Source: an uncultured Acidobacteriaceae bacterium
GTDB lineage: Bacteria; Acidobacteriota; Terriglobia; Terriglobales; Acidobacteriaceae
Length of the DNA: 40,000 nucleotides
Reading direction: 5' to 3'
Assembly (NCBI GenBank): GCA_963773645.1
Contig: CAVZBV010000002.1
Span: forward strand, 1,242,600-1,282,599
A model generated the notes under the pieces. The model worked only from the letters and a program-made list of their open reading frames with translations. It ran no database searches and had not been told where the DNA came from. A program made the translations under genes and the position numbers. Numbering within the stretch: position 1 is the first letter of the stretch; each line of letters opens with the position of its first letter. Positions 9,543 through 28,986 of this stretch are shown here, in pieces.

Positions 9543-9606
9543 CCGCGCCGGGCAATTCCTCGTATCTCTTGTTCGCGACTCGCGTTTCGCCACGCTCGGA
9601 CCAGGC

Positions 9607-9620
9607 CATCCTTCGTTGAC
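9607..9620 (+). repeat. direct repeat copy 1 of CATCCTTCGTTGAC (putative target-site duplication)
   Basis: Identical 14-mer at 9607, 21542 and 35964, all in the same orientation and each abutting a TIR end. One extra upstream C is shared, so 15 bp is possible. Confidence 0.8.
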
Positions 9621-9718
9621 GGGTTTGTGTATGGCGACGGCAAAAGTGCTACACCCCCCACACGGGAACTTTGGACCCTGGGGCCGGGGCCCGCGCGCTG
9701 GCGAGTGGGGCGGGCGGG
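9621..9718 (+). repeat. left terminal inverted repeat of element A (98 bp)
   Basis: GGGTTTGTGTATGGCGACGGCAAAAGTGCTACACCCCCCACACGGGAACTTTGGACCCTGGGGCCGGGGCCCGCGCGCTGGCGAGTGGGGCGGGCGGG is the exact reverse complement of 21444-21541 (compared by eye, base by base). Confidence 0.85.
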
Positions 9719-9822
9719 GAGCCTTCTATTTGCCATTTAGATGCCAACTGAAAGGACTTGTCGCCTTGCCTTTTGACACATGGCAGCGCCAAGCAGCATG
9801 ATACCGTAATCTGCAAGACTAC

Positions 9823-11790
9823 ATGGATAACAACGAGCAGAGCACGACCCAAACTCTGACTGTCACGGAAATCCTCAAAGGTTCCGACTACTCCCTGACC
9901 ATCTTCACCGACCAAGAAGTCAAAGCGATCAAGCTTTTCGACAGGGGTGGGAAGCCCTATCTCACTTGCGCCGCGAGCGACAAGGCCCGGCCTGCCAAGC
10001 CGGAGGAGATCGTCCGTCAGCTGTACTTGCGCAAGCTGATGAGCATTTATGGGTATCCGAAAGACCGGATCGCCATAGAAAAGCCCGTATATTTTGGCTC
10101 CGCTGTACACGAGAAGGCAGCCGACATCGTGGTTTGGGAAAAGGATGCGCCCACCACGCCCTACATCATCGTCGAAGTCAAGAAACCAAAGCGCAAGGAC
10201 GGCCTGGAACAACTGAAGAGCTATTGCAATGCCGAAGGCTCACCAATTGGCGTGTGGACGAACGGCAGCGAGACAATCGCTCTCCACCGCGAAGAACCTA
10301 ATATTTTTCGCAATCTGCCGGACATTCCAACGGCAACGCAGCACCTTGCGGAGATGCTTGCCGAGCGATGGACGCTTGAGGACCTAGAGAAACACAACAA
10401 GCTAGTCACCGAGCGCCGGACGCTTAAGAGCGTCATTCTCGACATGGAGAACCTGGTTCTCGCCAACGCCGGTGTCGATGCTTTCGACGAGGTATTCAAG
10501 CTCGTTTATGCAAAGCTCTTCGACGAGTGGCAGGCGGCACGCGGCGGCAAGACGAAACGCTATCTCGAATTTCGCATCGGCGGCTCAACGGCTCGGGAGT
10601 TTTCGGAGAAGGTGGATACGCTTTTCAAGAGAGCTATGGAGCAATGGCCCGGAGTGTTCCCGGAAGGCGAGCGTGTTGACCTTGAACCGGACCATTTGAA
10701 GGTGTGTGGTTCGTTTCTCGAAGACATCAAGTTGTTCAACTCGAATTTGCAGGTGATTGACGAGGCTTTCGAATACCTCTCCATTAAGGCGGCGAAGGGC
10801 GAGAAAGGTCAATATTTCACGCCACGGCACGTCATCGATATGTGCGTGAAGATGCTCAATCCCGCCATCGACGACTACGTGGTCGATACTGCTGCTGGTT
10901 CTTGCGGCTTCACGGTGCACAGCATATTCCACGTGTGGGGCGATGTCTTCACGGCAAAGGGTCCCGAGAAGTGGCAATCCGACTACGCCTCCAGCCACGT
11001 CTACGGCCTCGACTTCGACCCCCGCTCCGTAAAGATTGCGCGTGCCCTCAACCTGATAGCAGGTGACGGAAGAACCAATGTCTATCGTGCGAACACGCTG
11101 GACCCACGGATGTGGAGTGAAGAAGTCCGCGTCGGATTGAAGCCTCGCCTCCGCCGCTTCCCGAAGGATGCGGAACGCGATGGCTGGAACCGCGAGCATT
11201 ACCGGTATTTCGACTTCGACGTGCTGCTTACAAATCCACCCTTCGCGGGCGACATCAAGGACAGCCGTATCATTCACCAGTACGACATTGCGAAGAACGG
11301 AAGAGGAAGATGGGAAGGCCGCATCGGGCGAGATATTCTTTTCATCGAACGCAACCTTGAATTTCTCAAACCAGGCGGACGCGCTGCCATCGTTCTACCG
11401 CAAGGCCGTTTCAACAATTCCGGTGACGAGGCTATCCGGCGCTGGATTGCCGAACGGGCGCGCATTCTCGCCGTGGTCGGACTTCAACAAAACACCTTCA
11501 AGCCGCATACAGGTACGAAAACCAGCGTGCTCTTCTTGCAGACGTGGAACGACGATAAGAACTCCTCAACCTACAACCCAAGGCTAGAGAACTACCCAGT
11601 GTTTCTCGCCACAAGCCTTAATTCCGGCAAGGACAACTCGGGTGAGTATCAATACCGGCTTGGCCCTGATAATGCCCCTCTGCTCGATGAGCACGGACAT
11701 ATGGTTGTGAACCACGACCTCGACGAGATTGCGGAAGGATTCTTGAAATGGGCGCGAAAACAGAAGATGCAGTTCGCTGAGGGTTCTTAA
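9823..11790 (+). CDS. hsdM: type I-like restriction-modification N6-adenine DNA methyltransferase (HsdM) with an N-terminal HsdR_N/restriction-endonuclease-like domain
   Basis: Motif I VVDTAAGSCGF, motif IV LLTNPPFAG, and QYFTPRHVIDMCVKML typical of N6_Mtase. The N-terminal ~170 aa include DIVVWEKD...YIIVEVKKPK (PD-(D/E)xK-like, as in the HsdR N-terminal domain). The stop TAA abuts the hsdS ATG (11788-11793). Confidence 0.85.
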   Translation: MDNNEQSTTQTLTVTEILKGSDYSLTIFTDQEVKAIKLFDRGGKPYLTCAASDKARPAKPEEIVRQLYLRKLMSIYGYPKDRIAIEKPVYFGSAVHEKAADIVVWEKDAPTTPYIIVEVKKPKRKDGLEQLKSYCNAEGSPIGVWTNGSETIALHREEPNIFRNLPDIPTATQHLAEMLAERWTLEDLEKHNKLVTERRTLKSVILDMENLVLANAGVDAFDEVFKLVYAKLFDEWQAARGGKTKRYLEFRIGGSTAREFSEKVDTLFKRAMEQWPGVFPEGERVDLEPDHLKVCGSFLEDIKLFNSNLQVIDEAFEYLSIKAAKGEKGQYFTPRHVIDMCVKMLNPAIDDYVVDTAAGSCGFTVHSIFHVWGDVFTAKGPEKWQSDYASSHVYGLDFDPRSVKIARALNLIAGDGRTNVYRANTLDPRMWSEEVRVGLKPRLRRFPKDAERDGWNREHYRYFDFDVLLTNPPFAGDIKDSRIIHQYDIAKNGRGRWEGRIGRDILFIERNLEFLKPGGRAAIVLPQGRFNNSGDEAIRRWIAERARILAVVGLQQNTFKPHTGTKTSVLFLQTWNDDKNSSTYNPRLENYPVFLATSLNSGKDNSGEYQYRLGPDNAPLLDEHGHMVVNHDLDEIAEGFLKWARKQKMQFAEGS

Positions 11791-12901
11791 ATGGCCGTGT
11801 GGAGTAGCGTCGAAGTTGACAGTTTATCTAAGGATTTCAGGCTCGATGCCGAGCACTACCAGCCTGAATACTTGGCGCAAGAGCGAGCGACCAACAAGCG
11901 GAGGAGCGTGGAACTCCAAACTATCGCGTTTGTGTCTGATGGAAACCACCTGAGCATAGCTGAGGAGTTTTCAGAATCCGGCGTTCGATATCTTCGCGGC
12001 CAAGACCTTTCCGACTTCTTCGTCTCTGATGCCGATCCGATCTATATTCCCGAGAAGATTTACCGGACCCTGCCCCGCTCTCACATGCTCGCAGGGGATG
12101 TCCTTGTTGGCATTGTGGGCACCATAGGCAGCGTTGGACTGGTCACGAAGCGCCACGGAAATCTCACAGGTAACTGTAAACTTGCAATCATCCGCGCTCG
12201 GTCTCTCCCAGCCGAGTACATAGCCGCGTATTTGACCTCGCGCATCGGGCAGAACGAGATTCAACGCCGTATACGTGGTGCGGTTCAAATGGGTCTTATC
12301 CTTCCCGACCTGAAGGCACTGCCCATCGTTGTGCCGACCGACAAAGAACGTGAGACTATCGTCAGCCTCGTGAGGGGTGCTGAGGTCAGTCGTGAGCGCT
12401 CCCGTAAGCTGGTAGCAGAAGCAGAAAGTTTACTCCTAGATTCCATCGGGCTGTCCGATGTCAGTTTTTCAAAGAACTTCCTCTACGAGCGTCAGTTCAG
12501 CGAGCTTTCTGCTGCAAGCCGAATGGACGCTGAGTACTTCTCGCCGCGCTATCAAACGGCGCTGGCGATCCTCGGACAACAGGGGCGCACCATTGGCGAT
12601 GTCGCGAACCTCGCGCAGCGGCGTTTTCAGTCCGAGGCTCTCAAGGGTTGCGGTACCTTCCAATACATTGAAATCGGTTCCTTGCAGGGAGATGGTCTAG
12701 CAGATGCCGAAACGATAAGTGTTTCCGAAGCGCCTAGCCGCGCCCAATGGATTGTGGAGCCAAATGACATTATTACGTCAACCGTCCGACCTATTCGACG
12801 GCTCTCCGCGATGATCTCTGCCCAGCAAGCTGGTTACGTGTGTTCATCAGGTTTTGCCGTGCTGGAACCCAAGTTGGGATCGAGTGGCATTGAACCGGAA
12901 T
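11791..12901 (+). pseudogene. hsdS: restriction-modification specificity subunit (HsdS), 3'-truncated by an IS3-family insertion
   Basis: Two target-recognition-domain-like halves (DAEHYQPEY... and MDAEYFSPRY...). The second half breaks off at ...GFAVLEPKLGSSGIEPEL. From 12902 the ORF reads into IS sequence (SGCTPA*, a string also seen in spurious ORFs of the other IS copies). Confidence 0.8.
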
Positions 12902-13639
12902 TGTCCGGATGCACTCCCGCTTGAGCGACTTATGCCAGCGTTCGATCTTCCCGTTCGACTGCGGGTAAAACGGCGAAGTGCGCACGTGCGTCATCCCCGA
13001 GATGCGAATGAACTCCTTGAAGTCGCGCGCGATGAACTGCGGTCCGTTGTCGGAGATTATCCGCGGCCTGGCTTCCGGGTACTTTTCCTTGGCTCGTTCC
13101 AGAATCATCTCAATGTCGGCTTCCTTCATCGACTCCCGCAAATCCCAATGCACCAGAAAACGACTGTATCCATCCAGCACACTGCATAAGTAATAGAACG
13201 TGCCCGACAGGTTGATATAGGAAACATCGACGTGCCAGTGCTGGTGCGGCTGCAGCGGCTGTTCGAAGCCGGTCCCCTTGCGCGACGGCTTCGGTTTCCA
13301 GCGCGAGAGGAGTCCCGCTTGTTTCAACACTCGCCATACGCTCGCCGGACTCACGGCCACCACATCGTGATCTAACATCATGAACGTAAGTCGCCGATAA
13401 CCTTCCAATGGATTCTTCAGGTGGAAGCCGATGATGGCTTCCTTCTCCCACGGCTCCAGCCAAAAATCTCGGGGCACCCAACCGTTGTGCTCATTCGCCC
13501 GACCATAGCGCTGCCGCCAGTTGTAGAACTTACTCGCAGTGACGCCCAGCCAATGAATGAATCGGCCGGCGCTGATCTCGGTCTTCTGCGACCAGCGCCG
13601 GACGAAATCCACCACCTGATCCCGCACATCGTGCGGCAC
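12902..13639 (-). pseudogene. IS3-family transposase OrfB, C-terminally truncated
   Basis: Identical to the 343-aa OrfB up to ...KSLKRECIRT, then reads into antisense hsdS sequence. It retains all three DDE residues but lacks the C-terminal ~100 aa. Confidence 0.85.
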
Positions 13640-13650
13640 CCAGGTCTCGG

Positions 13651-13965
13651 TCAGAGTTCCCCAAGGCTTTTTTTTAACGCGATGTGCTCCGCCATCAGCT
13701 CGGCCAGGACCTCGTCCTTGGTCTGCACCTTCTTCTCCAAGAACTCAATCCGCTTCTGCTTCTCCTCCGCCTGACGGCGAGGACGTTCCGGTGTTTGGAA
13801 GGCGGCCGCTCCGTTCTCGAAAAACTCTTTCTGCCAGCGGTAGAAAACCGTGGGTTGTAGCCCCAGTTCTTCACACAGATCGGAAACCGGGACCTTGTCC
13901 AAAAGATGGCGCCGTAGAACCGCCACTTTTTCCTCAGCAGTGTAGTGCTTGCGCTCTTTTTTCAT
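13651..13965 (-). CDS. IS3-family transposase OrfA (HTH)
   Basis: 104 aa, identical to the OrfA of the other two copies. HTH_Tnp_1-like, with leucine-zipper-like C-terminus. Confidence 0.9.
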   Translation of the reverse strand: MKKERKHYTAEEKVAVLRRHLLDKVPVSDLCEELGLQPTVFYRWQKEFFENGAAAFQTPERPRRQAEEKQKRIEFLEKKVQTKDEVLAELMAEHIALKKSLGEL

Positions 13966-14327
13966 ACGTTCGCTCCGCTATCTTAACGGACGAACGCTTT
14001 CTCCATTTCCAACTGAGGCGGGACAATAATGACATCCTGCCAGTGCGGACCATGTACAACGAGGTCACGCAGAATATCGGGAACAACTATCTCACGTCTG
14101 AGACGCCGATTTGGGTCGCTGGTCCCGATCTGATTGCGTCCGTAATCCGAACCGGCAAAGTGCCGCACATCATCCGGGCTATCCGCATGGTGCCGCACGG
14201 CAAGCAAGCTGGAATGCGAAGTGTAAACCTACGTGGCATGGTTGAAATTGATCCGTATGGGGATGATTTATTTTGCAAAACTATCGAACAGCGAAAACTG
14301 CACAAATCGGACTACGCCCTTTATTAC

Positions 14328-15626
14328 GGGAATTCCGACTTTGTAGTGGGTGACGATCTCGGGATGCGACAATCTGGGGATGCAAGATCGTGAACTGTAC
14401 CGACAGATTCTAGGGATTGAAGCGCCCTGGTTTGTAGAGCGAGTGGAACTAAAGCTGACCGAGGGCGAAGTACACATCTATCTGGAGCACGGAGAGATGG
14501 CGAGTTGGCCGTGCCCAGAATGCGAAGCGAGTTGCCAGTTGTATGACCATCAAGGGGAGCGGCAGTGGCGGCATCTGGACACCTGCCAATATCAGACGAT
14601 TCTGCATGCCCGGCCACCGCGCACCGAGTGCGCCGAGCATGGCGTACGGGTTCTGAAGTTGCGGTGGGCGGAGCCCTCGAGCCGATTCACCGCACTGATG
14701 GAACGGCTGGTGATTGACTGGCTGAGAGCGGCGAGTCAGAAAGCAGTGGGCGAACAGTTGGGACTGAGCTGGGACGAAATTCACGGGATCATGGAGCGGG
14801 CGGTGGCGCGGGGCTTGGAACGGAGGCAGGCCGAGCCTTTGCCACAGCTGGGAGTCGACGAGAAGGCGTTTCGGAAAGGGCACAAGTATTTCACGCTGGT
14901 GAATGACCTGGAGCGGTCCCGTGTGCTGTACGTGGCCGAAGATCGCACTCAGGCCAGCTTAGATGGATTCTGGCAGACCCTGACGGAAGGGCAGCGCGAG
15001 AGTATCGAGGCCATCGCCATGGACATGTGGGATCCCTACGTAGCTTCGGTTCGCGAGCATCTGCGGGAAGGGAGCCAAAAGATCGTCTACGACAAATTTC
15101 ATATCGCCAAACATCTGGGCGATGCCGTGGACAAAGTACGGCGCCAGGAAAACCGCACGCTGCGAGCGGCCGGCGATGACCGACTGACGGGAACACGCTA
15201 CGACTGGTTGCGGAATCCGACCGCCATGGAACCGGCCGATCGCAAAGCCTTTGCCGCGTTACGTCAGAGTGGGCTGAAGACGGCACGGGCTTGGGCTCTG
15301 AAAGAAACCGCCATGGCATTTTTCAGTTACCAATACGAGCGACCCGCGCGGAAACATTTTCGCTGGTGGCACGGCTGGGCCGTACGCAGTCGGCTGCGCC
15401 CCATGCTGGAGGTAGCCAGGACTTTGAAGCGACGCTTCGAGAACATCCTTACCTATCTCCGCCACCGCGTCACCAACGCTGCCAGCGAATCCATCAACGC
15501 CAAGATCCAGTGGGTCAAGTACACCGCACGCGGCTTCCGCAATAAGAAGAACTTCGCAGCTGCAATCCTCTTCCACTGCGGCGGTCTGGACCTGGCTCCT
15601 TAAGCCACTAAAATGCCGGAAGAGCC
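14328..15626 (+). mobile_element. ISL3-family insertion sequence with 8-bp target duplication
   Basis: Imperfect IRs GGGAATTCCGACTTTGTAGTGGG (14328-) and the reverse complement of the right end, GGCTCTTCCGGCATTTTAGTGGC (ends 15626). Flanked by TTTATTAC at 14320-14327 and 15627-15634. Confidence 0.85.
14380..15603 (+). CDS. ISL3-family transposase
   Basis: MQDRELYRQILGIEAPWFVERVEL... N-terminus, Zn-finger CPECEASC, and DDE_Tnp_ISL3-like body (GVDEKAFRKGHKYFTLV...AMDMWDPY...TNAASESINAKIQ). A GTG at 14350 is an alternative start. Confidence 0.88.
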   Translation: MQDRELYRQILGIEAPWFVERVELKLTEGEVHIYLEHGEMASWPCPECEASCQLYDHQGERQWRHLDTCQYQTILHARPPRTECAEHGVRVLKLRWAEPSSRFTALMERLVIDWLRAASQKAVGEQLGLSWDEIHGIMERAVARGLERRQAEPLPQLGVDEKAFRKGHKYFTLVNDLERSRVLYVAEDRTQASLDGFWQTLTEGQRESIEAIAMDMWDPYVASVREHLREGSQKIVYDKFHIAKHLGDAVDKVRRQENRTLRAAGDDRLTGTRYDWLRNPTAMEPADRKAFAALRQSGLKTARAWALKETAMAFFSYQYERPARKHFRWWHGWAVRSRLRPMLEVARTLKRRFENILTYLRHRVTNAASESINAKIQWVKYTARGFRNKKNFAAAILFHCGGLDLAP

Positions 15627-16176
15627 TTTATTACTGGCTTAAGATTTTTGCAAACTCCATTTATGGTTTTTTTGTTGAATTAAATCCAGAACGGAAAAAG
15701 AACAACGTACCTGTCAAGGTTTTTTCAGGAGACAAGAACTTCCCCGATGATTCGGACGTGATTGAAAATCCTGGACCGTGGTTTTTTCCACCTTTGGCCT
15801 CGCTCATCACATCTGGCGGACGCCTATTGCTCGCCATGACGGAAGCGTGTGTGGAAGCCAAGAAGGGCACGTATCTATTTTGTGACACAGATTCACTTGC
15901 AATCGTGGCCTCCAAGAAAGGTGGGTTGCTGCGCATTCCGGGCAGCAAAGGAATCCGGATTCTCTCGTGGGCTGAAGCGAAGAAAATCGCTGACAAATTC
16001 GCTGCGCTGAATCCTTACAACCGCAAGATCGTGAAAGGTTCAATTCTGAATCTTGTGGACGCGAACTATGTTGACTCGGACTCCAAGAACCCGCAGCGCC
16101 AGTTGTACGGGTACAGTGTCCCGCCTCAGTTGGAAATGGAGAAAGCGTTCGTCCGTTAAGATAGCGGAGCGAACGT

Positions 16177-16491
16177 ATGAAAAAAGAGCGCAAGCACTAC
16201 ACTGCTGAGGAAAAAGTGGCGGTTCTACGGCGCCATCTTTTGGACAAGGTCCCGGTTTCCGATCTGTGTGAAGAACTGGGGCTACAACCCACGGTTTTCT
16301 ACCGCTGGCAGAAAGAGTTTTTCGAGAACGGAGCGGCCGCCTTCCAAACACCGGAACGTCCTCGCCGTCAGGCGGAGGAGAAGCAGAAGCGGATTGAGTT
16401 CTTGGAGAAGAAGGTGCAGACCAAGGACGAGGTCCTGGCCGAGCTGATGGCGGAGCACATCGCGTTAAAAAAAAGCCTTGGGGAACTCTGA
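16177..16491 (+). CDS. IS3-family transposase OrfA
   Basis: 104-aa HTH protein, identical in all three copies. Confidence 0.9.
   Translation: MKKERKHYTAEEKVAVLRRHLLDKVPVSDLCEELGLQPTVFYRWQKEFFENGAAAFQTPERPRRQAEEKQKRIEFLEKKVQTKDEVLAELMAEHIALKKSLGEL
16468..16475 (+). other. A7G slippery site for programmed -1 ribosomal frameshift (OrfA to OrfAB)
   Basis: TTAAAAAAAAG near the end of orfA. orfB (frame -1 relative to orfA) is open across it. This is the canonical IS3-family arrangement. The equivalent sites are 20313-20320 (- strand) and in the truncated copy. Confidence 0.75.
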
Positions 16492-16502
16492 CCGAGACCT
16501 GG

Positions 16503-17534
16503 GTGCCGCACGATGTGCGGGATCAGGTGGTGGATTTCGTCCGGCGCTGGTCGCAGAAGACCGAGATCAGCGCCGGCCGATTCATTCATTGGCTGGGCGT
16601 CACTGCGAGTAAGTTCTACAACTGGCGGCAGCGCTATGGTCGGGCGAATGAGCACAACGGTTGGGTGCCCCGAGATTTTTGGCTGGAGCCGTGGGAGAAG
16701 GAAGCCATCATCGGCTTCCACCTGAAGAATCCATTGGAAGGTTATCGGCGACTTACGTTCATGATGTTAGATCACGATGTGGTGGCCGTGAGTCCGGCGA
16801 GCGTATGGCGAGTGTTGAAACAAGCGGGACTCCTCTCGCGCTGGAAACCGAAGCCGTCGCGCAAGGGGACCGGCTTCGAACAGCCGCTGCAGCCGCACCA
16901 GCACTGGCACGTCGATGTTTCCTATATCAACCTGTCGGGCACGTTCTATTACTTATGCAGTGTGCTGGATGGATACAGTCGTTTTCTGGTGCATTGGGAT
17001 TTGCGGGAGTCGATGAAGGAAGCCGACATTGAGATGATTCTGGAACGAGCCAAGGAAAAGTACCCGGAAGCCAGGCCGCGGATAATCTCCGACAACGGAC
17101 CGCAGTTCATCGCGCGCGACTTCAAGGAGTTCATTCGCATCTCGGGGATGACGCACGTGCGCACTTCGCCGTTTTACCCGCAGTCGAACGGGAAGATCGA
17201 ACGCTGGCATAAGTCGCTCAAGCGGGAGTGCATCCGGACACTGACTCCGTTAACGCTGGACGATGCACGCCGCTTGATTCAACTCTACGTGGATCACTAC
17301 AACACGATGCGCCTACACAGTGCGATCGGCTATGTGACGCCGCAGGATCGGCTCGCCGGACGACAGGCCGAGATCCACGCGGCTCGCGATCGCAAGTTAG
17401 AAGAAGCTCGTCGCCAGCGGCAACTCCGACGGCAGCAGACGGCGTCTTGGAGGTTTGCACCCTCTTCCACGCCAGCTACAATGACCTCGCCGGGTGAAAC
17501 GGAAGCGGGCTCTGCCGGGAGGCAACCATGCTGA
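16503..17534 (+). CDS. IS3-family transposase OrfB (rve/DDE integrase domain)
   Basis: DDE triad contexts HWHVDVSY, IISDNGPQF, PQSNGKIERWHKSLKRE. 343 aa from the first in-frame start. Probably expressed as an OrfAB fusion. Confidence 0.9.
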   Translation: MPHDVRDQVVDFVRRWSQKTEISAGRFIHWLGVTASKFYNWRQRYGRANEHNGWVPRDFWLEPWEKEAIIGFHLKNPLEGYRRLTFMMLDHDVVAVSPASVWRVLKQAGLLSRWKPKPSRKGTGFEQPLQPHQHWHVDVSYINLSGTFYYLCSVLDGYSRFLVHWDLRESMKEADIEMILERAKEKYPEARPRIISDNGPQFIARDFKEFIRISGMTHVRTSPFYPQSNGKIERWHKSLKRECIRTLTPLTLDDARRLIQLYVDHYNTMRLHSAIGYVTPQDRLAGRQAEIHAARDRKLEEARRQRQLRRQQTASWRFAPSSTPATMTSPGETEAGSAGRQPC

Positions 17535-17850
17535 GGGATAACCTGGTGGGGCTCATCGAGCCGATGCTCAGCAGCGCGGGAGTTGATCCTCTCGCGCTCT
17601 GCATGCGAGGAAAAAGCCATCGGACGATAGACCCCCATGCCTTGAAAATCCCCGCCCCGAAGGGGCGGAATCTACACTAACGGAGAACGCCGCTTCTCCA
17701 TTTCACGCTGAGCCAAGACAAGACTTCTACACTATCAATCCGACGGAGCGCACGAGGTAGACGTGTGTGAACAGTCCCCGCGCCGCTTCGAGAGCCTTGA
17801 GAATGAGTTGCGGTCTGCACGCCAAACAGACCTCAAAGGAGGACACGGAG

Positions 17851-18036
17851 ATGAAAGGCATAGTGCGCTGCCCTTATTGCATATTAGGCGTTGAGTTCCG
17901 ACCGATGGTTGCCCATGTGGACGGCAGATACATATGCAACAAATGCGGCCATACGACACACCCAAGGGATGCGAAATATGAGTGTCACTGCCCCAAATGT
18001 GCAAACCTTAGATCTCGTGCTTTTGTTGCAAGTTGA
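17851..18036 (+). CDS. small zinc-ribbon protein, unknown function
   Basis: 61 aa from the ATG preceded by AAGGAGG (8-nt spacing). Three CxxC pairs (CPYC, CNKC, CPKC). Confidence 0.5.
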   Translation: MKGIVRCPYCILGVEFRPMVAHVDGRYICNKCGHTTHPRDAKYECHCPKCANLRSRAFVAS

Positions 18037-18631
18037 GTTGGTTTCAGTACTTCTCCCCGCCCGGAACCGGCAGTGTGCAAGCAACGAGGCAGGACTTTTT
18101 CCGGCTATTGCAGCTTCGCATACTCGGCCCTGGCTTCCTTCAGGATTGGGATGTCGGGGTCTGCGTCTTTCCAGAGGGTGAGGAAATCTTCATAGGCAGC
18201 GGGTTTTGGCGGTGTCGCCGGAGATAACCTAGAACAGAGTTGGTCCGTGTTCTACGCCATCACTCCCAAGAAGAACGCGTGAGGACTGAGTCCGAGCACT
18301 GCACCAAAAGCGGTCATTGACACTGGCCCCCCTGGAGCTTAGCCTCGATATGTCTCCATTGGCCACAGCCAAAACTTCTGTCGCCTTCTCTTATAAAGCG
18401 GCCCCTAAAGCGGCTCCGAAGCGGCCTGACCCACGAGGACATTCGGGCAGTTGAAATTCATAAGATCGCACGCCCGTCTCCGATGACGGTGTAGGCCCGA
18501 ATACATGGTGGTCAAGCAGCTGGTCGCAAGACCGACTCCACCCCAGTGACCCGCCACCGCAGCCGGTCAGCTTCGACCGGCAGCCTCGAATTGTCGCCTG
18601 TCGAGAAACAAGCGCAAAAGGAGTGTTCCCA

Positions 18632-18955
18632 ATGTTTACAAGAATTGTTGAAGTAACCACCAAATCAGGAAAGGCAAAAGAGCTCTCGAACGTCATCAAC
18701 GACAAGGTACTACCGATTCTGAAAAAACAGGTCGGATTCGTGGATGAGACCGTCATGGCATCAGATACCGACCCCGATCGTGTTTTGGCACTGAGCTTTT
18801 GGAACACGAGAGAAGATGCCGAACGGTATAACCGCGAGCAATATCCCGCCGTCCACGAGATGATACGGCACCTGCTGGAGACAGAGCCCGCAATTCGGAC
18901 CTTCAATGTCGATAGCTCAACCACGCACAAGATCGCAGCTAGCAAAGCGGCCTGA
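18632..18955 (+). CDS. ABM/Dabb-like (antibiotic biosynthesis monooxygenase fold) small protein
   Basis: MFTRIVEVTTKSGKAKE...ALSFWNTREDAERY is typical of ferredoxin-like ABM domains. AAAGGAG lies 8 nt upstream of the ATG at 18632. Confidence 0.6.
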   Translation: MFTRIVEVTTKSGKAKELSNVINDKVLPILKKQVGFVDETVMASDTDPDRVLALSFWNTREDAERYNREQYPAVHEMIRHLLETEPAIRTFNVDSSTTHKIAASKAA

Positions 18956-18978
18956 AAACAACCTGATTGCGCACAAAA

Positions 18979-19003
18979 GGGCGAGCCCAAACGTGGCTCG
19001 CCC
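18979..19003 (+). terminator. stem-loop after the ABM gene (possible terminator)
   Basis: GGGCGAGCC-CAAACGT-GGCTCGCCC forms a perfect 9-bp stem 24 nt after the stop. There is no clear U-tract. Confidence 0.4.
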
Positions 19004-19253
19004 GACCTTGCGCTCTTTAAGACTGAAGAACGTAGAAATGCTCCGTGCCGCGCACGAGAGCTGGAACTGTCTTGGCTCAGCGTGAAATGGAGAAGCGGCG
19101 TTCTCCGTTAGTGTAGATTCCGCCCCTTCGGGGCGGGGATTTTCAAGGCATGGGGGTCTATCGTCCGATGGCTTTTTCCTCGCATGCAGAGCGCGAGAGG
19201 ATCAACTCCCGCGCTGCTGAGCATCGGCTCGATGAGCCCCACCAGGTTATCCC

Positions 19254-20285
19254 TCAGCATGGTTGCCTCCCGGCAGAGCCCGCTTCCGTTTCACCCGGCG
19301 AGGTCATTGTAGCTGGCGTGGAAGAGGGTGCAAACCTCCAAGACGCCGTCTGCTGCCGTCGGAGTTGCCGCTGGCGACGAGCTTCTTCTAACTTGCGATC
19401 GCGAGCCGCGTGGATCTCGGCCTGTCGTCCGGCGAGCCGATCCTGCGGCGTCACATAGCCGATCGCACTGTGTAGGCGCATCGTGTTGTAGTGATCCACG
19501 TAGAGTTGAATCAAGCGGCGTGCATCGTCCAGCGTTAACGGAGTCAGTGTCCGGATGCACTCCCGCTTGAGCGACTTATGCCAGCGTTCGATCTTCCCGT
19601 TCGACTGCGGGTAAAACGGCGAAGTGCGCACGTGCGTCATCCCCGAGATGCGAATGAACTCCTTGAAGTCGCGCGCGATGAACTGCGGTCCGTTGTCGGA
19701 GATTATCCGCGGCCTGGCTTCCGGGTACTTTTCCTTGGCTCGTTCCAGAATCATCTCAATGTCGGCTTCCTTCATCGACTCCCGCAAATCCCAATGCACC
19801 AGAAAACGACTGTATCCATCCAGCACACTGCATAAGTAATAGAACGTGCCCGACAGGTTGATATAGGAAACATCGACGTGCCAGTGCTGGTGCGGCTGCA
19901 GCGGCTGTTCGAAGCCGGTCCCCTTGCGCGACGGCTTCGGTTTCCAGCGCGAGAGGAGTCCCGCTTGTTTCAACACTCGCCATACGCTCGCCGGACTCAC
20001 GGCCACCACATCGTGATCTAACATCATGAACGTAAGTCGCCGATAACCTTCCAATGGATTCTTCAGGTGGAAGCCGATGATGGCTTCCTTCTCCCACGGC
20101 TCCAGCCAAAAATCTCGGGGCACCCAACCGTTGTGCTCATTCGCCCGACCATAGCGCTGCCGCCAGTTGTAGAACTTACTCGCAGTGACGCCCAGCCAAT
20201 GAATGAATCGGCCGGCGCTGATCTCGGTCTTCTGCGACCAGCGCCGGACGAAATCCACCACCTGATCCCGCACATCGTGCGGCAC
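19254..20285 (-). CDS. IS3-family transposase OrfB
   Basis: Identical 343-aa DDE product. Confidence 0.9.
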   Translation of the reverse strand: MPHDVRDQVVDFVRRWSQKTEISAGRFIHWLGVTASKFYNWRQRYGRANEHNGWVPRDFWLEPWEKEAIIGFHLKNPLEGYRRLTFMMLDHDVVAVSPASVWRVLKQAGLLSRWKPKPSRKGTGFEQPLQPHQHWHVDVSYINLSGTFYYLCSVLDGYSRFLVHWDLRESMKEADIEMILERAKEKYPEARPRIISDNGPQFIARDFKEFIRISGMTHVRTSPFYPQSNGKIERWHKSLKRECIRTLTPLTLDDARRLIQLYVDHYNTMRLHSAIGYVTPQDRLAGRQAEIHAARDRKLEEARRQRQLRRQQTASWRFAPSSTPATMTSPGETEAGSAGRQPC

Positions 20286-20296
20286 CCAGGTCTCGG

Positions 20297-20611
20297 TCAG
20301 AGTTCCCCAAGGCTTTTTTTTAACGCGATGTGCTCCGCCATCAGCTCGGCCAGGACCTCGTCCTTGGTCTGCACCTTCTTCTCCAAGAACTCAATCCGCT
20401 TCTGCTTCTCCTCCGCCTGACGGCGAGGACGTTCCGGTGTTTGGAAGGCGGCCGCTCCGTTCTCGAAAAACTCTTTCTGCCAGCGGTAGAAAACCGTGGG
20501 TTGTAGCCCCAGTTCTTCACACAGATCGGAAACCGGGACCTTGTCCAAAAGATGGCGCCGTAGAACCGCCACTTTTTCCTCAGCAGTGTAGTGCTTGCGC
20601 TCTTTTTTCAT
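20297..20611 (-). CDS. IS3-family transposase OrfA
   Basis: Identical 104-aa product. Confidence 0.9.
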   Translation of the reverse strand: MKKERKHYTAEEKVAVLRRHLLDKVPVSDLCEELGLQPTVFYRWQKEFFENGAAAFQTPERPRRQAEEKQKRIEFLEKKVQTKDEVLAELMAEHIALKKSLGEL

Positions 20612-20963
20612 ACGTTCGCTCCGCTATCTTAACGGACGAACGCTTTCTCCATTTCCAACTGAGGCGGGACAGTCTGTGTTGAGTAGCTTTTTACCCTGGT
20701 CTCTCAGAGCATGTAAATAGCCCGATTGTGTCAACGGAGAGCACAATTTGGGTATGACTCCAACTCGGCTTTAGCCGCCCGATGCGAGGCCACAGGTTTT
20801 ACCACCTATTTCCACAGACCTGCCGCGATCCACAGCTTGACAATCTACTGCTCTCTGTTACAGTAGCCGCGACTCCCTGCCAATCCGGGACCGCCCGTCC
20901 CGCTCAAAGCCCCTCGTTGACAGCTCGTCTTGGGCTTACGTCAATTCCCGAGGAGCTTGCTTT

Positions 20964-21230
20964 ATGCCCCGTCGTATGTTTTCTACCGTTCCTTTTCCCA
21001 GTGGTGCATCCTCCCGCTCGATATGGGAGAAACTATATGAGCGTGCGATTCTGGAACTTGATTACGCAAAAGTGCCCGAGCGGATTGCTGAAGCTCGTCA
21101 GTCTATGCATGACAGGGCTGAAGAAATACTCACCGAGTCGTCGAGTAACGAACGAGGCGCTCTCAATAAGGCGCTGCGGAACTTAGGCTTACTTGAGGAA
21201 ATGACAGCGAGAGAAAAATCCATAGAATAG
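20964..21230 (+). CDS. small hypothetical protein
   Basis: 88 aa with GAGGAG 8 nt upstream. Helical sequence (EKLYERAILELDYAKVPERIAEARQSM...). No recognised motif. Confidence 0.45.
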   Translation: MPRRMFSTVPFPSGASSRSIWEKLYERAILELDYAKVPERIAEARQSMHDRAEEILTESSSNERGALNKALRNLGLLEEMTAREKSIE

Positions 21231-21443
21231 AACATCCCCTCTAACACCCCTTAAACCCGCGCGGCGACCTGCTCCGTACCTGCGATGGTTCCCACCACCG
21301 CATCAACTTGTCAACTGCGATCTCACTGCGATCTCACAAGATCGCGAACGGTGGGCGGCCAGCCTGGCGCTACCCACTCGCTATTGGCCCCCGCACACAT
21401 CACCACGCCTGCCCCACTCGCGCGCCCGGTCCACTCCGCGCAT

Positions 21444-21541
21444 CCCGCCCGCCCCACTCGCCAGCGCGCGGGCCCCGGCCCCAGGGTCCAAAGTTCCCGT
21501 GTGGGGGGTGTAGCACTTTTGCCGTCGCCATACACAAACCC
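21444..21541 (-). repeat. right terminal inverted repeat of element A (98 bp)
   Basis: Exact reverse complement of 9621-9718. Confidence 0.85.
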
Positions 21542-21555
21542 CATCCTTCGTTGAC
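21542..21555 (+). repeat. direct repeat copy 2 of CATCCTTCGTTGAC (shared junction between elements A and B)
   Basis: Sits exactly between the right TIR of A (ends 21541) and the left TIR of B (starts 21556). Confidence 0.8.
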
Positions 21556-21645
21556 GGGTAGGATGTGGCGACGGGAAAAACGGCTACACCCCCTCCCCGG
21601 AACTTGGACCCCAGAGGCCGGGGCCCGCGCGCGAGCGAGTGGGGC
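21556..21645 (+). repeat. left terminal inverted repeat of element B (90 bp)
   Basis: GGGTAGGATGTGGCGACGGGAAAAACGGCTACACCCCCTCCCCGGAACTTGGACCCCAGAGGCCGGGGCCCGCGCGCGAGCGAGTGGGGC is the exact reverse complement of 35874-35963. Confidence 0.85.
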
Positions 21646-21710
21646 AGGCGAACTGGGCCGGATGTACGAGCGATGGGCGAGTGGGTGAGCGTGGGTGCGA
21701 CGCGGCTTCT

Positions 21711-21902
21711 CTACCGGGAACGTTTGGCGGGCTTCCTCTTGAGAATGTCCTTGGCTGCTAGCCTTGCCAGACCGAGGATAATGCCGGAATTGCTGAGAAT
21801 GGCATCTGGCCACAGAGCATTAGCCGCCCTTTGGAGCGTGGAGAAATCCTCTGTATTCATCTTGACGTTTACTTGGACTGTACGTTTTCCGCCGGTTTCC
21901 AT
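21711..21902 (-). CDS. small protein, possibly ribbon-helix-helix DNA-binding
   Basis: 63 aa. KRTVQVNVKMNTEDFSTLQRAANAL fits a beta-strand plus helix RHH start. Located just inside the left TIR. Weak call. Confidence 0.35.
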   Translation of the reverse strand: METGGKRTVQVNVKMNTEDFSTLQRAANALWPDAILSNSGIILGLARLAAKDILKRKPAKRSR

Positions 21903-22012
21903 TTCCTCACTATCGTTACGTTCGTACCCTTTTGTAGCAACGATACTGTTGGTACCTTTCGTACCATGGACCGACAGCTATTCGGCACGGGGCCATTCGC
22001 AGGGAGTGCATT

Positions 22013-23176
22013 ATGAAACAGCAAATCATCCGAAGCAGGAAATCTGGTCACGTTTCTGTGACAACGCTGATACTGGCAATCGTAATAACTGCCGTTGTTG
22101 TGATTGGAGCTTCATTCTTCCTCTGGAAATCGAAAAGTGCTGCTACACGAATCTCCGCACCGCAACAATCGGGAGCAGTCCAGGAGCAACGTTCCACGGA
22201 GAAGAGTCAAGCCAGTCCGAAGTCGAGCACGGAACCACCGCGAGAGGTATCTGCCGAGGACATATTTAAGTCGGCATCGCCCAGTGTCGCTCTGATTGAG
22301 GTGTTCAATGAGTCAGGGGAACGGCTTGGCACGGCAAGTGGTTTCGTGGCAAGCGATAACGGGGCGGTCATCACTAATTATCACGTGATTAGGGGTGCAT
22401 ATTCGGCAAATGCTCATTTTCAGGACGGCAGCACACGTTCTGTTGAAGGTGTAATTGGCCATGACCCCTATCGCGATGTGGCTGTCGTTAAAGTTAGCGA
22501 TGTCGGAGCGAAACCTCTGACTCTCGGTGACTCAGAGCATGTGCAGGTTGGTGACAAAGTAACCGCGATAGGGTCGCCTCTGGCCTTAGAGAACACAGTC
22601 TCCGATGGGCTAGTGAGCGGGATTCGGAACGGAGTGATTCAAACCAGTACACCGATTAGCCCTGGATCGAGCGGCGGGCCGTTCTTCAATTCGTACGGTG
22701 AAGTCGTCGGAATTGCGGTTGCGACTGCTACTTTCAAAGGCCCCGAGAACATGAATCTTGCCGAGAACGTAAATTTTGCAGTTCCGATCAATTGGGCAAA
22801 AACCTATCTGCACGACTCCACGATCACTTCACTTGCCGATCTCGCGAAACAAAACACCGTTGTGAAACAGGTACTAGGTTCGACCATTTCCGTTCCAGCG
22901 CACCAACGTCGTGTTCTGCCGATTGTCGTCAATCCACACCAAATGTCGAACGCTGAACTCAAAGGGTCGTTTTCTTCCAGAGGCGGTGTGGACGGCGTTA
23001 TTCGGATCATGGTGCTCAACCAAAACAGTGTTGTTTATGACTCAGGTCGAACCGCAACCGGAACAGTTCACCTACCACTTAGAGCGGGAACCTACCAGTT
23101 GGTACTTGATAACACTAGATCGGCGCTATTTCCTCGGAGCGTGACATCTGACTTTAGCTTGCGCTATGTGAAATAG
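22013..23176 (+). CDS. membrane-anchored trypsin-like (S1/HtrA-type) serine protease with an unknown C-terminal domain
   Basis: N-terminal TM helix (VTTLILAIVITAVVVIGASFFLW). Catalytic triad contexts TNYHVIRG, RDVAVVKV, PGSSGGPFF. GGGAG lies upstream of the ATG. No PDZ recognised; the last ~120 aa are uncharacterised. Confidence 0.85.
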   Translation: MKQQIIRSRKSGHVSVTTLILAIVITAVVVIGASFFLWKSKSAATRISAPQQSGAVQEQRSTEKSQASPKSSTEPPREVSAEDIFKSASPSVALIEVFNESGERLGTASGFVASDNGAVITNYHVIRGAYSANAHFQDGSTRSVEGVIGHDPYRDVAVVKVSDVGAKPLTLGDSEHVQVGDKVTAIGSPLALENTVSDGLVSGIRNGVIQTSTPISPGSSGGPFFNSYGEVVGIAVATATFKGPENMNLAENVNFAVPINWAKTYLHDSTITSLADLAKQNTVVKQVLGSTISVPAHQRRVLPIVVNPHQMSNAELKGSFSSRGGVDGVIRIMVLNQNSVVYDSGRTATGTVHLPLRAGTYQLVLDNTRSALFPRSVTSDFSLRYVK

Positions 23177-23339
23177 GAACAGGAACACCCAGAATTAGAA
23201 GTGCGGGCTGAAGGTCCTCCGGTAGCGAAATTGCCGAGACGCCAGCAACTTACTAAGGACTGTTGGGGCAAAAGTACCAGATTCTTTTACACGGAAGGCA
23301 ACGTAACCAACAGGAACTCTTGAACCAAAAGGGGGATTT

Positions 23340-23780
23340 ATGAAACGCTTCACAGCACAGCTGGTCCTGGTAGTTGCGGTGACGCTTTCCGCGTCGATGG
23401 CAAACGCAGCGATGACAGGTGCCAGTCTTGAAAAACTTTGTACTAGTTGGACTGTAGACGCAAGCCTAGCCGCGTCGGTTGGCCCCGGCAAGACTTACGA
23501 AAACCTGGATGGGTTTAGAAATGCCACTTGGTGCCAAGCATACATCGGAGGTTACGGGGCCGGTATCAAAGGCGCGATGGGAACCGACGACAAGGGCATC
23601 ATGGGCACCTACACTATTGAACAGGGAGTTACTCCGCCGCAAGTTGTCAAAGTATTCAAACAGTACATTGCGAACCATCCAGAAGAAGAGAACAAACCCG
23701 CTGGCGATGTGTTATACCACGCCATGACCAGCTCCGGGCTACTCACCCTGGTAGTGGAAGAGAAATCAGGCAATCAATGA
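23340..23780 (+). CDS. small secreted protein, unknown function (faint resemblance to Rap1a/Tai4-type immunity proteins)
   Basis: Signal peptide MKRFTAQLVLVVAVTLSASMANA. The pattern TGASLEKLC...WCQAYIGGYG recalls the C...C-x-Y-I-x-G pattern of Rap1a-like domains, from memory only. Confidence 0.6.
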   Translation: MKRFTAQLVLVVAVTLSASMANAAMTGASLEKLCTSWTVDASLAASVGPGKTYENLDGFRNATWCQAYIGGYGAGIKGAMGTDDKGIMGTYTIEQGVTPPQVVKVFKQYIANHPEEENKPAGDVLYHAMTSSGLLTLVVEEKSGNQ

Positions 23781-23898
23781 AAACCTTTAAGACTTTTTCA
23801 AAACACAGATAGCGGCAGCGTAGGATTCGGAGACTCCGAGTGTCGACGATATAGCAGAAATCGTAATCTCGGCGATTATCTTCGACACCTGCCCGACC

Positions 23899-25392
23899 TT
23901 AGTCCACCGTCACATCCCGAGTTTCCTTCATTCCTAAATACGATCGGAACATAGGGTGTACCTGAAAACGCGGTATATTACGGAGATTCAAATTCCCCAA
24001 CTGGTGAGGGCCCACGTAGCTGCTCCCGCTTCGACGAACAGCCTTGATACCCCCAACAGCTTGCGCACGAAGGAAACCGATTCGCCAGAGGATGTCAATT
24101 AACAGATCTGGTTCCTGATTATGGACCCAGCCAGCATCCTGATGCAGACCGTACTCACCAGTTGTTATAGCTAAACAAAGAAGGTCGAGCTCGTCACGTT
24201 TGAAGCCATAAGAGCGACCCCGAAACACGTCAAAAATGCTGGATAGGCCAGGGTACTGGAACCGATATTCAGCGGAGATGTCATTCGTTCTAGCCTCGGA
24301 GTATCCACTCTCAGCTTGGCTGATCACCCGATACTCGATAGGCCAGACTTCAGCGCTGCGACTTTCCTCCAAAGCATCGGTACAAAATTGTATGATCTCG
24401 CGCGGACGATATAGAGTTCGGTCCACCAAATAATTAAAGGACTTAGCTCCCCGATAGTCGAGAGTGTCCACAAAAACGGAGTTCCAACAGTCCGTATCAT
24501 CACTTGAAATGAGACCAGGTACAGTGTGGCGGATACGCTTAGCGACGAGCTCAAGCAACATCGTTTCATTCCAATTTATGGTTTCCATTACATCGCGATA
24601 CTTCTGCGCATCCTCGTAAAGTGACGGAATGCTGTCGTAAAGTTCTTTGCGCAAAGTAACGAGCACTCGAACCGGTTTGGTCACCTCATTGATTGAAACT
24701 GCCGCTTGGAACAATCCGGCGACGAATGCCTTAGCATCTTCGGACGCGTCCCATCCGCGATCCAGCTCATCTACTAGAACGACCACTTTCTGGCGACTAC
24801 AAATCTCGGCTATCCCTGGCAAAAGCGGCTCGATCTCTTCGAGTTTATAAAGACGAAAGAGTTCTTTCGATTTGACAGCCGTTTCATACTTACCAACCTT
24901 TAGCCCCTCCATTCTCTTCAGATAAGAAACTAAGGTCCCAATTGGATTGGTTTGCTCCCCACTGTGATTGTCTCGTAGATACTCGTAAATCTTCGCGGCA
25001 GCCCCGGTCTTTAGTCGACGGCCTTGCTTATTGAGGCCCTTCATTACAAGGACGTAAATCAGATACTTCCAGGCTGCTGCATATGCACCCTGTTTTGCCC
25101 AAGCACCCTCCGTTTCATGTTTCATGATAGATGACAGCATTTCGTAGGAATAATTTTCGGGTGCAAGCTCAATGACGAGGGAGCCCTTCGCGCGTTCTCG
25201 CTCAGCGACCATTTTGAAAATTGCACTCTTACCTGAGCCCCTATTTCCTAAAATTACAAACTTTTCTCCAGCAAGTACCCGACGAAAGGTTTCTGATTCA
25301 ACGAAGTATTCACGTAATCCTCTATCTATGTCACGCTCTGCCGCCGGGGCTCCAAAGCTAAGCGACTTGAAACCGTGAGGCATAATACTCAT
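23899..25392 (-). CDS. P-loop NTPase (KAP/STAND-like), unknown function
   Basis: Walker A ILGNRGSGKSA and Walker B VVVLVDELDRGWD, followed by a long helical C-terminal region. 497 aa. Confidence 0.8.
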   Translation of the reverse strand: MSIMPHGFKSLSFGAPAAERDIDRGLREYFVESETFRRVLAGEKFVILGNRGSGKSAIFKMVAERERAKGSLVIELAPENYSYEMLSSIMKHETEGAWAKQGAYAAAWKYLIYVLVMKGLNKQGRRLKTGAAAKIYEYLRDNHSGEQTNPIGTLVSYLKRMEGLKVGKYETAVKSKELFRLYKLEEIEPLLPGIAEICSRQKVVVLVDELDRGWDASEDAKAFVAGLFQAAVSINEVTKPVRVLVTLRKELYDSIPSLYEDAQKYRDVMETINWNETMLLELVAKRIRHTVPGLISSDDTDCWNSVFVDTLDYRGAKSFNYLVDRTLYRPREIIQFCTDALEESRSAEVWPIEYRVISQAESGYSEARTNDISAEYRFQYPGLSSIFDVFRGRSYGFKRDELDLLCLAITTGEYGLHQDAGWVHNQEPDLLIDILWRIGFLRAQAVGGIKAVRRSGSSYVGPHQLGNLNLRNIPRFQVHPMFRSYLGMKETRDVTVD

Positions 25393-25610
25393 GTTGTTAA
25401 ACCAGAATTTCTTTTGTTGATTTCCAAATCGGCACCATTCTACGCCTATTCTCGCGTCGAATACACATTTGTGAACGTGGTAAGATAGACCCTAATTGTG
25501 ATTCATGTTCAAAGTCAGACCGTACGCTCGTCTACTTATCCGGTAAAATGCCGACGAGTCTGCGCAAGCGCCTGCCAGTGCTGATGGGATTTGTGATCCG
25601 TACTGACGAT

Positions 25611-26126
25611 TCATGGTGCAAAGAGCGCCTTCAGGAACAGAGCGCCAGCTAGCAGCGGGAGCCAGGTCTTGACCTCACGTAAGGAACGTGCCAGCATCTC
25701 AATCCCTCTGGTGAACGGCCACGGACTATCCTGCCCAAAGGCGGCAGTACATTCTCTTGCCCAACGATCCGGGTTTTGAGCCGCGTACTTGATTCTGCGT
25801 CGGTGCAATTCACCCATCAACTTGGCCCCGGCCAAGCTGATCGCGAGACTCAGTATCACGAGGCCAAGCGAACTCTTTGCCCAAAGATTGTTCAAGATCG
25901 TCTGAACAGAGCCGAATGCCGCCCAGTTGGCACCAATTAACGCCAAGGACAACTGGAAACTGCTATCGGTGAGCTTACCAGTCCAATACTCGAAGTCTTG
26001 TTTCACGGCCCTCTGCGCTTCACCAGGGTTGGCGTAGAGGGCCACAATGTGCCTCTGGGATTCCGTGACTTTGTCCGTTCCGACCGAAGAAGAATTCGAT
26101 GACCCCTCAACCACGATGCCCTCCAC
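25611..26126 (-). CDS. integral membrane protein, unknown function
   Basis: 171 aa from a GTG start. Hydrophobic segments FQLSLALIGANWAAFG, SSLGLVILSLAISLAGA, WLPLLAGALFLKALF. Same strand as, and upstream of, the NTPase gene. The start is uncertain. Confidence 0.55.
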   Translation of the reverse strand: MEGIVVEGSSNSSSVGTDKVTESQRHIVALYANPGEAQRAVKQDFEYWTGKLTDSSFQLSLALIGANWAAFGSVQTILNNLWAKSSLGLVILSLAISLAGAKLMGELHRRRIKYAAQNPDRWARECTAAFGQDSPWPFTRGIEMLARSLREVKTWLPLLAGALFLKALFAP

Positions 26127-26338
26127 CGGCCCCGTTCCTCTTTCTTGCCGCCTTCTTTGCTACCTTTTTCTTTGCTGGCCTCTTTTTCTTTGCTGGCCTC
26201 TTTTTCGACGCCTTTTTCATGGCCACGTTTCGCCTCCGTTTGGATATTACCGATCTCGCATTGCTGCTGCACACTTATGCTACACCCACGAATGTTAGAC
26301 GAAGGAAAGCGCCAGTCTGTTCTGAATTTGTAACAAGA

Positions 26339-28632: not shown

Positions 28633-28752
28633 AATTAAAGGGCAAAATCTATCTCGTGTGTCTTGACTGAATCAGAAATAGCCATACCATACATAGTATA
28701 TCACTTGTTCTTGCAGCATACTAGTGCAAGGGCAATTACGGGAGGCACCAAG

Positions 28753-28983: not shown

Positions 28984-28986
28984 GCC

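Follow-up and report, generated by a model that had tools for sequence, protein, structure and literature searches.

Target choice by casposases has been worked out only for the archaeal families 1 and 2, which use tRNA or aEF-2 gene ends; the studies concern A. boonei and Ca. N. koreensis, and a 2023 review adds M. mazei. The locus described here, contained in a 40,000-nt stretch of DNA from an uncultured acidobacterium (the whole stretch is referred to as the window), raises the question of what was recognized when two elements inserted, one beside the other, between a hydrolase gene and a protein kinase gene. Three exact copies of a 14-mer, CATCCTTCGTTGAC, delimit the two elements (Table 1). 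None of 100 dinucleotide shuffles yielded three matches to it, and the genome (6,131,451 bp) contains no exact copy beyond these three. The arms of the terminal inverted repeats, perfect in both cases, lie at 9621-9718 and 21444-21541 in element A, and at 21556-21645 and 35874-35963 in element B. Together with the 14-mer copies and the Cas1 and PolB encoded by B, these repeats identify A and B as two tandem casposons, the first decayed and the second intact. Casposon B satisfies the criteria for such an element, namely a Cas1 integrase, a family B polymerase, inverted repeats accompanied by a duplication, and no CRISPR-Cas locus. A CRISPR-like repeat family was not found in 9000-36500, and the scanned ORFs neighbouring the casposon B Cas1 gene gave no match to Cas2 or Cas4.

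Casposon A lacks Cas1. It contains genes for a methylase and a specificity subunit, three IS3-family copies, one ISL3 element and a PolB remnant; a 60-nt stretch in it is 77% identical to the casposon B polymerase gene. The IS3-family copies (12902-14025, 16117-17720 and 19068-20671) are identical where they overlap, two being complete (1,604 nt) and the third a 1,124-nt part; a further copy lies at the start of contig C4 (L027, 184-1215). These copies point to a recent burst and possibly explain breaks in the assembly. Casposon B also carries cargo genes. One of them (33072-35810, 912 aa) codes for a TPR protein and includes nine tandem 138-nt repeats at 34272-35675, with 72-95% identity to the reference copy.

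Table 1. Coordinates of the two casposons, their target site and the neighbouring host genes in the window
Feature	Position	Strand	Detail
Hydrolase, upstream host gene, beta-lactamase family, 672 aa	7524..9542	+	Pfam PF00144, E 1.9e-56
Native flank upstream of target	9543..9606	+	Last 17 nt plus duplication recur at G000:C4:18950-18980, one mismatch
Target site duplication, copy 1, promoter-distal	9607..9620	+	Exact 14-mer
Casposon A, decayed	9621..21541	.	98-nt perfect terminal inverted repeats
Target site duplication, copy 2, between casposons A and B	21542..21555	+	Exact 14-mer
Casposon B, intact	21556..35963	.	90-nt perfect terminal inverted repeats; Cas1 and PolB
Casposase Cas1, casposon B	26339..27874	-	Pfam PF01867, E 2.9e-40
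Family B DNA polymerase, casposon B	29875..32982	+	Pfam PF03175, E 3.9e-8
Target site duplication, copy 3, promoter-proximal	35964..35977	+	Last 5 nt are TTGAC
Predicted -35 hexamer TTGACT, kinase promoter	35973..35978	+	Last five bases of the 14-mer plus the next base; kept in paralogue promoters
Predicted -10 hexamer TAAGAT	35996..36001	+	17 nt past the -35 hexamer
Ser/Thr protein kinase with beta-propeller tail, downstream host gene	36031..38661	+	Pfam PF00069, E 2e-44

The excision of both elements and two of the three 14-mers joins 9543-9620 to 35978-36030. In this reconstituted site, 131 bp separate the hydrolase stop (9542) from the kinase GTG (36031), the hydrolase ending 64 nt upstream of the duplication. 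An earlier reading of the DNA (hereafter, the sequence-only reading) had placed the target in an intergenic space of about this length and away from any tRNA or EF-2 gene end, and had asked for a scan for non-coding RNAs around both junctions. The length proved exact, and the scan detected no RNA gene. ARAGORN found no tRNA or tmRNA in the window, and no Rfam family reached its gathering score anywhere along it. At E<=10, the intervals 9300-9900 and 35700-36300 returned noise only (E 0.55-6.7, far under the gathering scores). Folding revealed no excess of structure in the 131-nt spacer over that of shuffled sequences (MFE z 0.04 and -0.14), and no tRNA or tmRNA adjoined the targets at the 19 related loci scanned. 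In casposons of families 1 and 2, the duplication overlaps a tRNA or aEF-2 gene at its 3′-end, which is not the case here. At another locus (L033, reverse complement 16799-16955), the casposon lies between divergent promoters, and its far flank leads to a tRNA-Gly gene 68 nt away, facing it with the 5′ side, not the 3′-end.

The sequence-only reading also described casposons as inserting at the ends of tRNA and EF-2 genes. Both kinds of target occur, but this account was incomplete: in the survey of Krupovic et al. 2014 (PMC4046053), three casposons are assigned to the aEF-2 3′-end, five to tRNA 3′-ends and ten to intergenic positions. HenMar-C1 and NitAL212-C1 (bacterial), as well as AceAut-C1 (environmental), appear there as intergenic without a target rule (PMC4046053, Table S1). 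Intergenic insertion alone is therefore not new.

No empty site was found for the window locus: the hydrolase orthologues in three related genomes (G023, G021 and G003) are not followed by a kinase, and the G023 kinase orthologue lies on a different contig from that of the hydrolase. The promoters of kinase paralogues, and unoccupied promoters of valS, were used as stand-ins. In G023 (contig C5, locus L008), a target-like sequence, GTCTATCCTTTGAC, is present some 110 nt past the hydrolase stop; neither a kinase nor a casposon end follows. The present gene order may be younger than the left half of the target site.

The duplication overlaps a predicted promoter for the kinase gene, TTGACT-17-TAAGAT, located 29 nt ahead of the GTG. 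It fits the definition of a sigma-70-type promoter, with hexamers resembling TTGACA and TATAAT 17 +/- 1 nt apart ahead of a gene, and is the sole promoter-like site in 35500-36500 (9/12 consensus matches; shuffles average 0.2). The kinase belongs to a paralogous family with at least 15 copies per genome. Three paralogues in the same genome (C4:2233007, C4:463422 and C1:443801) have an upstream region in common, consisting of ...TTCGTTGAC, a spacing of 17-18 nt, TA(A/G)(G/A)AT and then a conserved short leader; the spacer sequence between TTGAC and the -10 hexamer varies among paralogues. The kinase orthologue of G023 shows ATTGACT-17-TAAGAT, again with a different spacer sequence. TAAGAT is the commonest -10 hexamer among the TTGACN-17/18-TANNNT sites lying outside long ORFs (11/129), mostly ahead of kinase paralogues and valS. 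Conservation of this kind would be expected of a working promoter, an inference that rests on consensus and conservation only, with no mapped transcription start. The 5′ leader GAAGCGACCCGAAAGCCAGGCATC (window 36002-36030) is conserved with paralogues C4:2233007 and C4:463422, and no obvious Shine-Dalgarno sequence precedes the kinase start codon; GAAGCGACCCGAAAGCCAGGCATC may be a shared regulatory leader.

The promoter-proximal copy of the duplication restores positions -44 to -31, solely the elements further upstream being displaced. Since this copy resupplies TTGAC, the kinase is predicted to keep its core promoter. The proposals of the sequence-only reading that the target overlaps a probable promoter, and that insertion preserves it, are therefore borne out as far as a predicted promoter allows: its hexamers are conserved in paralogues, and the duplication rebuilds the -35 box. 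The same reading had seen -35 boxes at the left edge of each element, reading inward. The pentamer copies are indeed there (TTGACG at 9616-9621 and 21551-21556), but no -10 partner for them exists inside the inverted repeats, so inward transcription is not predicted, and hybrid promoters reading into the repeats from the duplicated -35 copies were rejected.

A scan of one genome per species identified 39 loci with Cas1 homologues (48-86% identity), all in Acidobacteriaceae/Terriglobales assemblies. None of the conclusions depends on G029, G034, G035, G036, G038 or G040, which are flagged as unpublished. In about 20 of the 39 loci, self-comparison showed cas1 to be enclosed by a pair of inverted repeats. 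The 20 elements for which both ends were defined were flanked by a direct repeat of 14 bp (13-15 at junctions whose limits are obscured by terminal G/C runs), one end of which read TTGAC (TTGCC once). The elements were found in either orientation relative to the TTGAC end, about half in each, and the asymmetry therefore belongs to the target. In single junctions lacking a clean pair, retrieved by searching for repeat ends, TTGAC or GTCAA adjoined the element, the exception being L056 (TTGCT). Three more genomes with Cas1 proteins of 47-53% identity, one of them from another family, also showed TTGAC junctions. Overall, more than 30 junctions were collected for Cas1 proteins 47-86% identical, and 27 of the 29 tabulated ended in TTGAC; a random 14-mer would carry TTGAC at one or other end with a probability of about 0.0016. 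The sequence-only reading had asked whether homologous insertions elsewhere would reveal a conserved target, and they did: 14-bp duplications ending in TTGAC, with a -10-like hexamer 17-18 nt further on.

Position weights were calculated from the 29 sites, which fall into 10 target classes, with weighting by class. T, T and G were invariant at positions -5 to -3, A at -2 had a weight of 0.8 and C at -1 one of 0.9. The remaining nine positions of the duplication were nearly free, with a C/G preference at -7. The duplication of 14 bp, its invariant TTG and near-invariant AC at one end, and the exact register of the cut are thus direct observations. The flanks upstream of the duplication showed no relatedness between target classes. 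The possibility that TTGAC might be an end of the element was rejected: it is present on one side only, with nine variable bases between it and the other repeat end.

The promoter context recurs at the related targets. Of 12 unrelated target classes, 10 have TANNNT 16-18 nt past the hexamer. In the source genome, only 3.0% of 10,006 TTGAC sites have TANNNT at that spacing, a value that rises to 7.6% for the 2,130 TTGAC sites outside long ORFs; against the latter, the probability of at least 10 of 12 is 3.5e-10. The promoter context is not a by-product of TTGAC alone. The -10 hexamers at the targets were TAAGAT, TAACAT, TATACT, TACACT, TAGACT and TAAACT; most independent targets have a -10-like hexamer 17-18 nt downstream. 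The exceptions were L054, with no -10-like hexamer, and L090, with AATACT only; these two loci, and the TTGCC and TTGCT sites, indicate that the motif requirement is not absolute. The spacing is 17 nt in some target classes and 18 nt in others, a mix more in keeping with natural promoters than with a protein acting as a rigid ruler. No relation is seen among the genes downstream, which include kinases, valyl-tRNA synthetase, NuoB, rnpA, a LytTR response regulator, an amidase, a DUF4932 protein and TPR proteins; the target with rnpA 310 nt downstream is probably that of the rpmH-rnpA operon. That these sequences are working promoters is an inference, no transcription start having been mapped.

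Some promoters are used repeatedly. The valS promoter, TTGACC-18-TAAGAT, is occupied by casposons in many genomes. In the source genome, it is accompanied by a 39-nt fragment (G000:C1:736922-736960; L028 9923-9961) that is 97% identical to an end of casposon B and finishes exactly 14 bp upstream of the TTGAC end; this fragment is a solo remnant at a second hot spot. In five other genomes (G017, G007, G011, G006 and G001), inverted-repeat ends likewise lie 14 bp upstream of the valS TTGAC end. The repeat types and the 5′ part of the duplication differ among the occupants of the valS promoter, which appears unoccupied in G018, G003, G005, G014 and G002. A further trace in the source genome is an orphan left junction (G000:C4:18820-18980; L027, minus strand), where a diverged inverted-repeat end is followed by ordinary genes. 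At this junction, 31 nt match window positions 9590-9620 bar one base, and a search of the genome found no partner repeat for it (G000:C4:18950). The junction is probably what remains of a casposon at a paralogous kinase-type promoter, the site having since been rearranged.

Tandem arrays are common among relatives, with up to four or more elements. In G041, an array of about 50 kb containing four or more casposons lies upstream of nuoB (G041:C1:2401839-2452526; L051, L063, L082 and L086), the promoter of which is TTGACA-17-TAGACT. Five exact copies of the duplication (13-14 bp) bound four elements of 2.8, 15.9, 14.9 and 17.1 kb. Three of these have distinct cas1 genes, whose products are 69, 63 and 53% identical to the casposon B Cas1, which implies that diverged casposon lineages have a target in common. 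Two other exact 13-mer matches in G041 (L083 and L084) are not casposon junctions. In most loci the promoter-side flank of the cas1-bearing element is native DNA, and the far flank is often another repeat end. Small or decayed members, where recognizable, are promoter-distal (casposon A in the window, element 0 of L032 and the 2.8-kb element of G041). Although the cases are few, they hint that new copies may enter at the promoter-proximal repeat, in the manner of leader-proximal acquisition in CRISPR. A few promoters (valS, kinases) recur well beyond what recognition of promoters in general would lead one to expect, which suggests either an extra sequence preference or inherited, self-reinforcing arrays; given the possible inheritance of old arrays, the sites are not all independent events.

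The protein responsible would be the product of the casposon B cas1, the single Cas1 gene of the genome. It matches Cas1 and casposase structures (PDB 4n06, 6opm), and its layout comprises a Cas1 core (approximately residues 46-306), a CxxC...CxxC zinc ribbon and a C-terminal XRE-type helix-turn-helix. The four Cys of the ribbon are invariant, and the helix-turn-helix conserved, in 27 homologues. An AlphaFold model of residues 304-511 had a mean pLDDT of 80.5, the helix-turn-helix, which bears a PHPRHW motif, being modelled at pLDDT >90; its resemblance to XRE/Cro/SinR domains is weak (Foldseek E 0.2-1). The tail was also considered as a mimic of sigma region 4, an idea that was rejected since no sigma-4 match stood out in the Foldseek search. 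The acidobacterial host, and a casposase with zinc ribbon and helix-turn-helix, agree with family 3, but the ribbon is C-terminal, not N-terminal. A database search with the casposase returned 5,795 proteins at E <= 1e-10, which may include more distant, possibly CRISPR-associated Cas1 proteins. The 120 best of these matches are metagenomic proteins, all at least 71% identical, and carry generic Cas1 names only, with no named relative among them. A search against Pfam found no HNH match at E<=5 in four small ORFs adjoining cas1 and polB, a subset of the ORFs of the element. With its tail of zinc ribbon and helix-turn-helix, the casposase is equipped to read DNA, and we infer that it reads the motif itself, although no data show that the tail binds the target rather than the transposon ends.

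The casposase might instead dock on the RNA polymerase holoenzyme, or on sigma-A, at promoters, the cut being placed at the -35 box as a consequence of this contact. Integrases of Ty3, Ty1 and Tf1 dock on transcription factors. Such tethering would accommodate a target made of two promoter elements that, like those of natural promoters, are 17 nt apart in some cases and 18 nt in others, the lack of any functional relation among the target genes, and a casposase tail without likeness to sigma region 4. However, the duplicated segment from -44 to -31 is the DNA that sigma region 4 and the alpha C-terminal domains would contact, where a bound polymerase should hinder access, and a cut register fixed to one base relative to TTGAC at all sites is typical of direct reading. 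L054 is still used despite having no -10 box, and the casposases of families 1 and 2 select their sites specifically in vitro, with naked DNA as the substrate (PMC5137440, PMC8464041). On balance we find tethering unlikely.

A different possibility is that TTGAC at one end of 14 bp suffices for insertion, promoters being enriched only because insertions elsewhere are lost. Survivors should then favour neutral intergenic sites that are not promoters by about 12 to 1, against the 10 promoter-like classes of 12 actually seen (with the P value given above). Different casposon lineages also return to the same promoters, which points to more specificity than a pentamer provides. The fact that only five positions carry much information, and the absence of a good -10 box at L054 and L090, do speak for this explanation, yet it fits the numbers poorly and we consider it very unlikely; tethering is the more interesting of the two. 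The use of gene 3′-ends by families 1 and 2 was the sole reason for considering that the true target might be an undetected RNA gene or structured element ending at the 14-mer. This can scarcely be credited, with no support found for it, negative ARAGORN and Rfam searches in the window and at related loci, a tRNA at L033 that is a separate divergent gene, no excess structure in the spacer, and unrelated upstream flanks in the different target classes.

With good confidence we regard the site as the upstream edge of a sigma-70-type promoter, a kind of site at which this clade of acidobacterial casposons aims. In the mechanism proposed, the casposase complex would make staggered cuts 14 bp apart, one right after the C of TTGAC in the -35 box and the other 14 bp upstream on the opposite strand. 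TTGAC would serve as the anchor at the leader-proximal end of the target, the promoter spacer and the -10 region acting as the leader. Gap repair would duplicate the 14 bp, with the promoter-proximal copy again placing TTGAC before the native spacer and -10 hexamer. The host gene would then retain its core promoter from about -44 on, losing only DNA further upstream. As each insertion would regenerate the target, more casposons could enter at the same place and tandem arrays could build up, as may have happened here with A and then B.

The finding supported as new is a family-wide target rule, based on the promoter -35 box, for a clade of bacterial casposons. The literature searched (full text, with incomplete coverage) contained no description of promoter -35 targeting by casposons, nor of acidobacterial casposons. 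In its widest form the proposal is that of a large, undescribed bacterial clade that uses TTGAC of the -35 box plus the -10 hexamer as an address, whose cut rebuilds the promoter and whose copies stack on the promoter side in a polar manner, making it the first family of prokaryotic DNA transposons known to aim at promoters; taken as a whole, we lean towards this view by a little only. The rule is testable, predicting N9-TTGAC, a cut after the C and a -10 box 17-18 nt downstream, in a clade that is abundant in soil metagenomes. It explains how essential genes, valS and nuoB among them, can escape silencing when elements of 12-17 kb pile up in front. It also provides integration assays or tools with a target that is short and portable and, for annotation, predicts where casposons and their remnants should be located in Acidobacteria.

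Elements that choose sites where the host gene is spared include group IIC introns at terminators, Tn7 at glmS, and Ty3, Ty1 and Tf1 at promoters; for some of these elements, the address is a recurrent transcription signal. Casposons are unrelated to them in enzymes and mechanism, and we know of no prokaryotic DNA transposon described as aiming at a -35 box. Casposons are the presumed ancestors of the CRISPR adaptation module, and a Cas1-family integrase tied to promoters bears on how a promoter-bearing leader came to lie beside the first CRISPR repeat. In CRISPR acquisition, Cas1-Cas2 is homologous to the casposase, the duplicated segment has the size of a repeat and adjoins a leader that contains a promoter, and arrays grow, as those of casposons possibly do, from the leader side. 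The CRISPR leader promoter reads into the array, whereas the promoter at a casposon target reads away from it, and the casposon inserts are transposons of 3-17 kb. If the proposal holds, these casposons provide a living example of a Cas1 integrase with its target beside a promoter, and a transposon-scale counterpart to leader-proximal spacer acquisition.

Among casposons, the family 3 element NitAL212-C1 resembles those described here in its 14-bp duplication and in a repeat starting GGGGTA, but its duplication, AGCCGGTACTGCCC, has no TTGAC end on either strand, and no target rule was described for it (PMC4046053, Table S1, Figure S2). The casposases of families 1 and 2 recognize the duplicated segment plus an adjacent leader, a short internal motif serving as a ruler (PMC5137440, PMC6614799, PMC8464041). 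AciBoo-C1 of Aciduliprofundum boonei (family 2) thus shares with the acidobacterial casposons a Cas1-family integrase, a duplication of similar size (about 15 bp), a bipartite target formed by the duplicated segment and its leader, and the regeneration of that target, which allows tandem insertion and leaves the host gene intact (PMC5137440, PMC6614799). It differs in that its leader is the T-psi-C part of a tRNA-Pro 3′-end, with one locus per genome; for the acidobacterial elements, the duplication itself contains the anchor, a -35 pentamer, and the targets are many unrelated promoters. The family 1 casposon of Ca. Nitrosopumilus koreensis is also sequence-specific, with a motif acting as a ruler and few positions of the duplication that matter (PMC8464041). 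It generates, however, a 13-bp duplication at the aEF-2 3′-end by means of a casposase without a helix-turn-helix, whereas the acidobacterial casposons duplicate 14 bp at promoters and encode a casposase with both a zinc ribbon and a helix-turn-helix.
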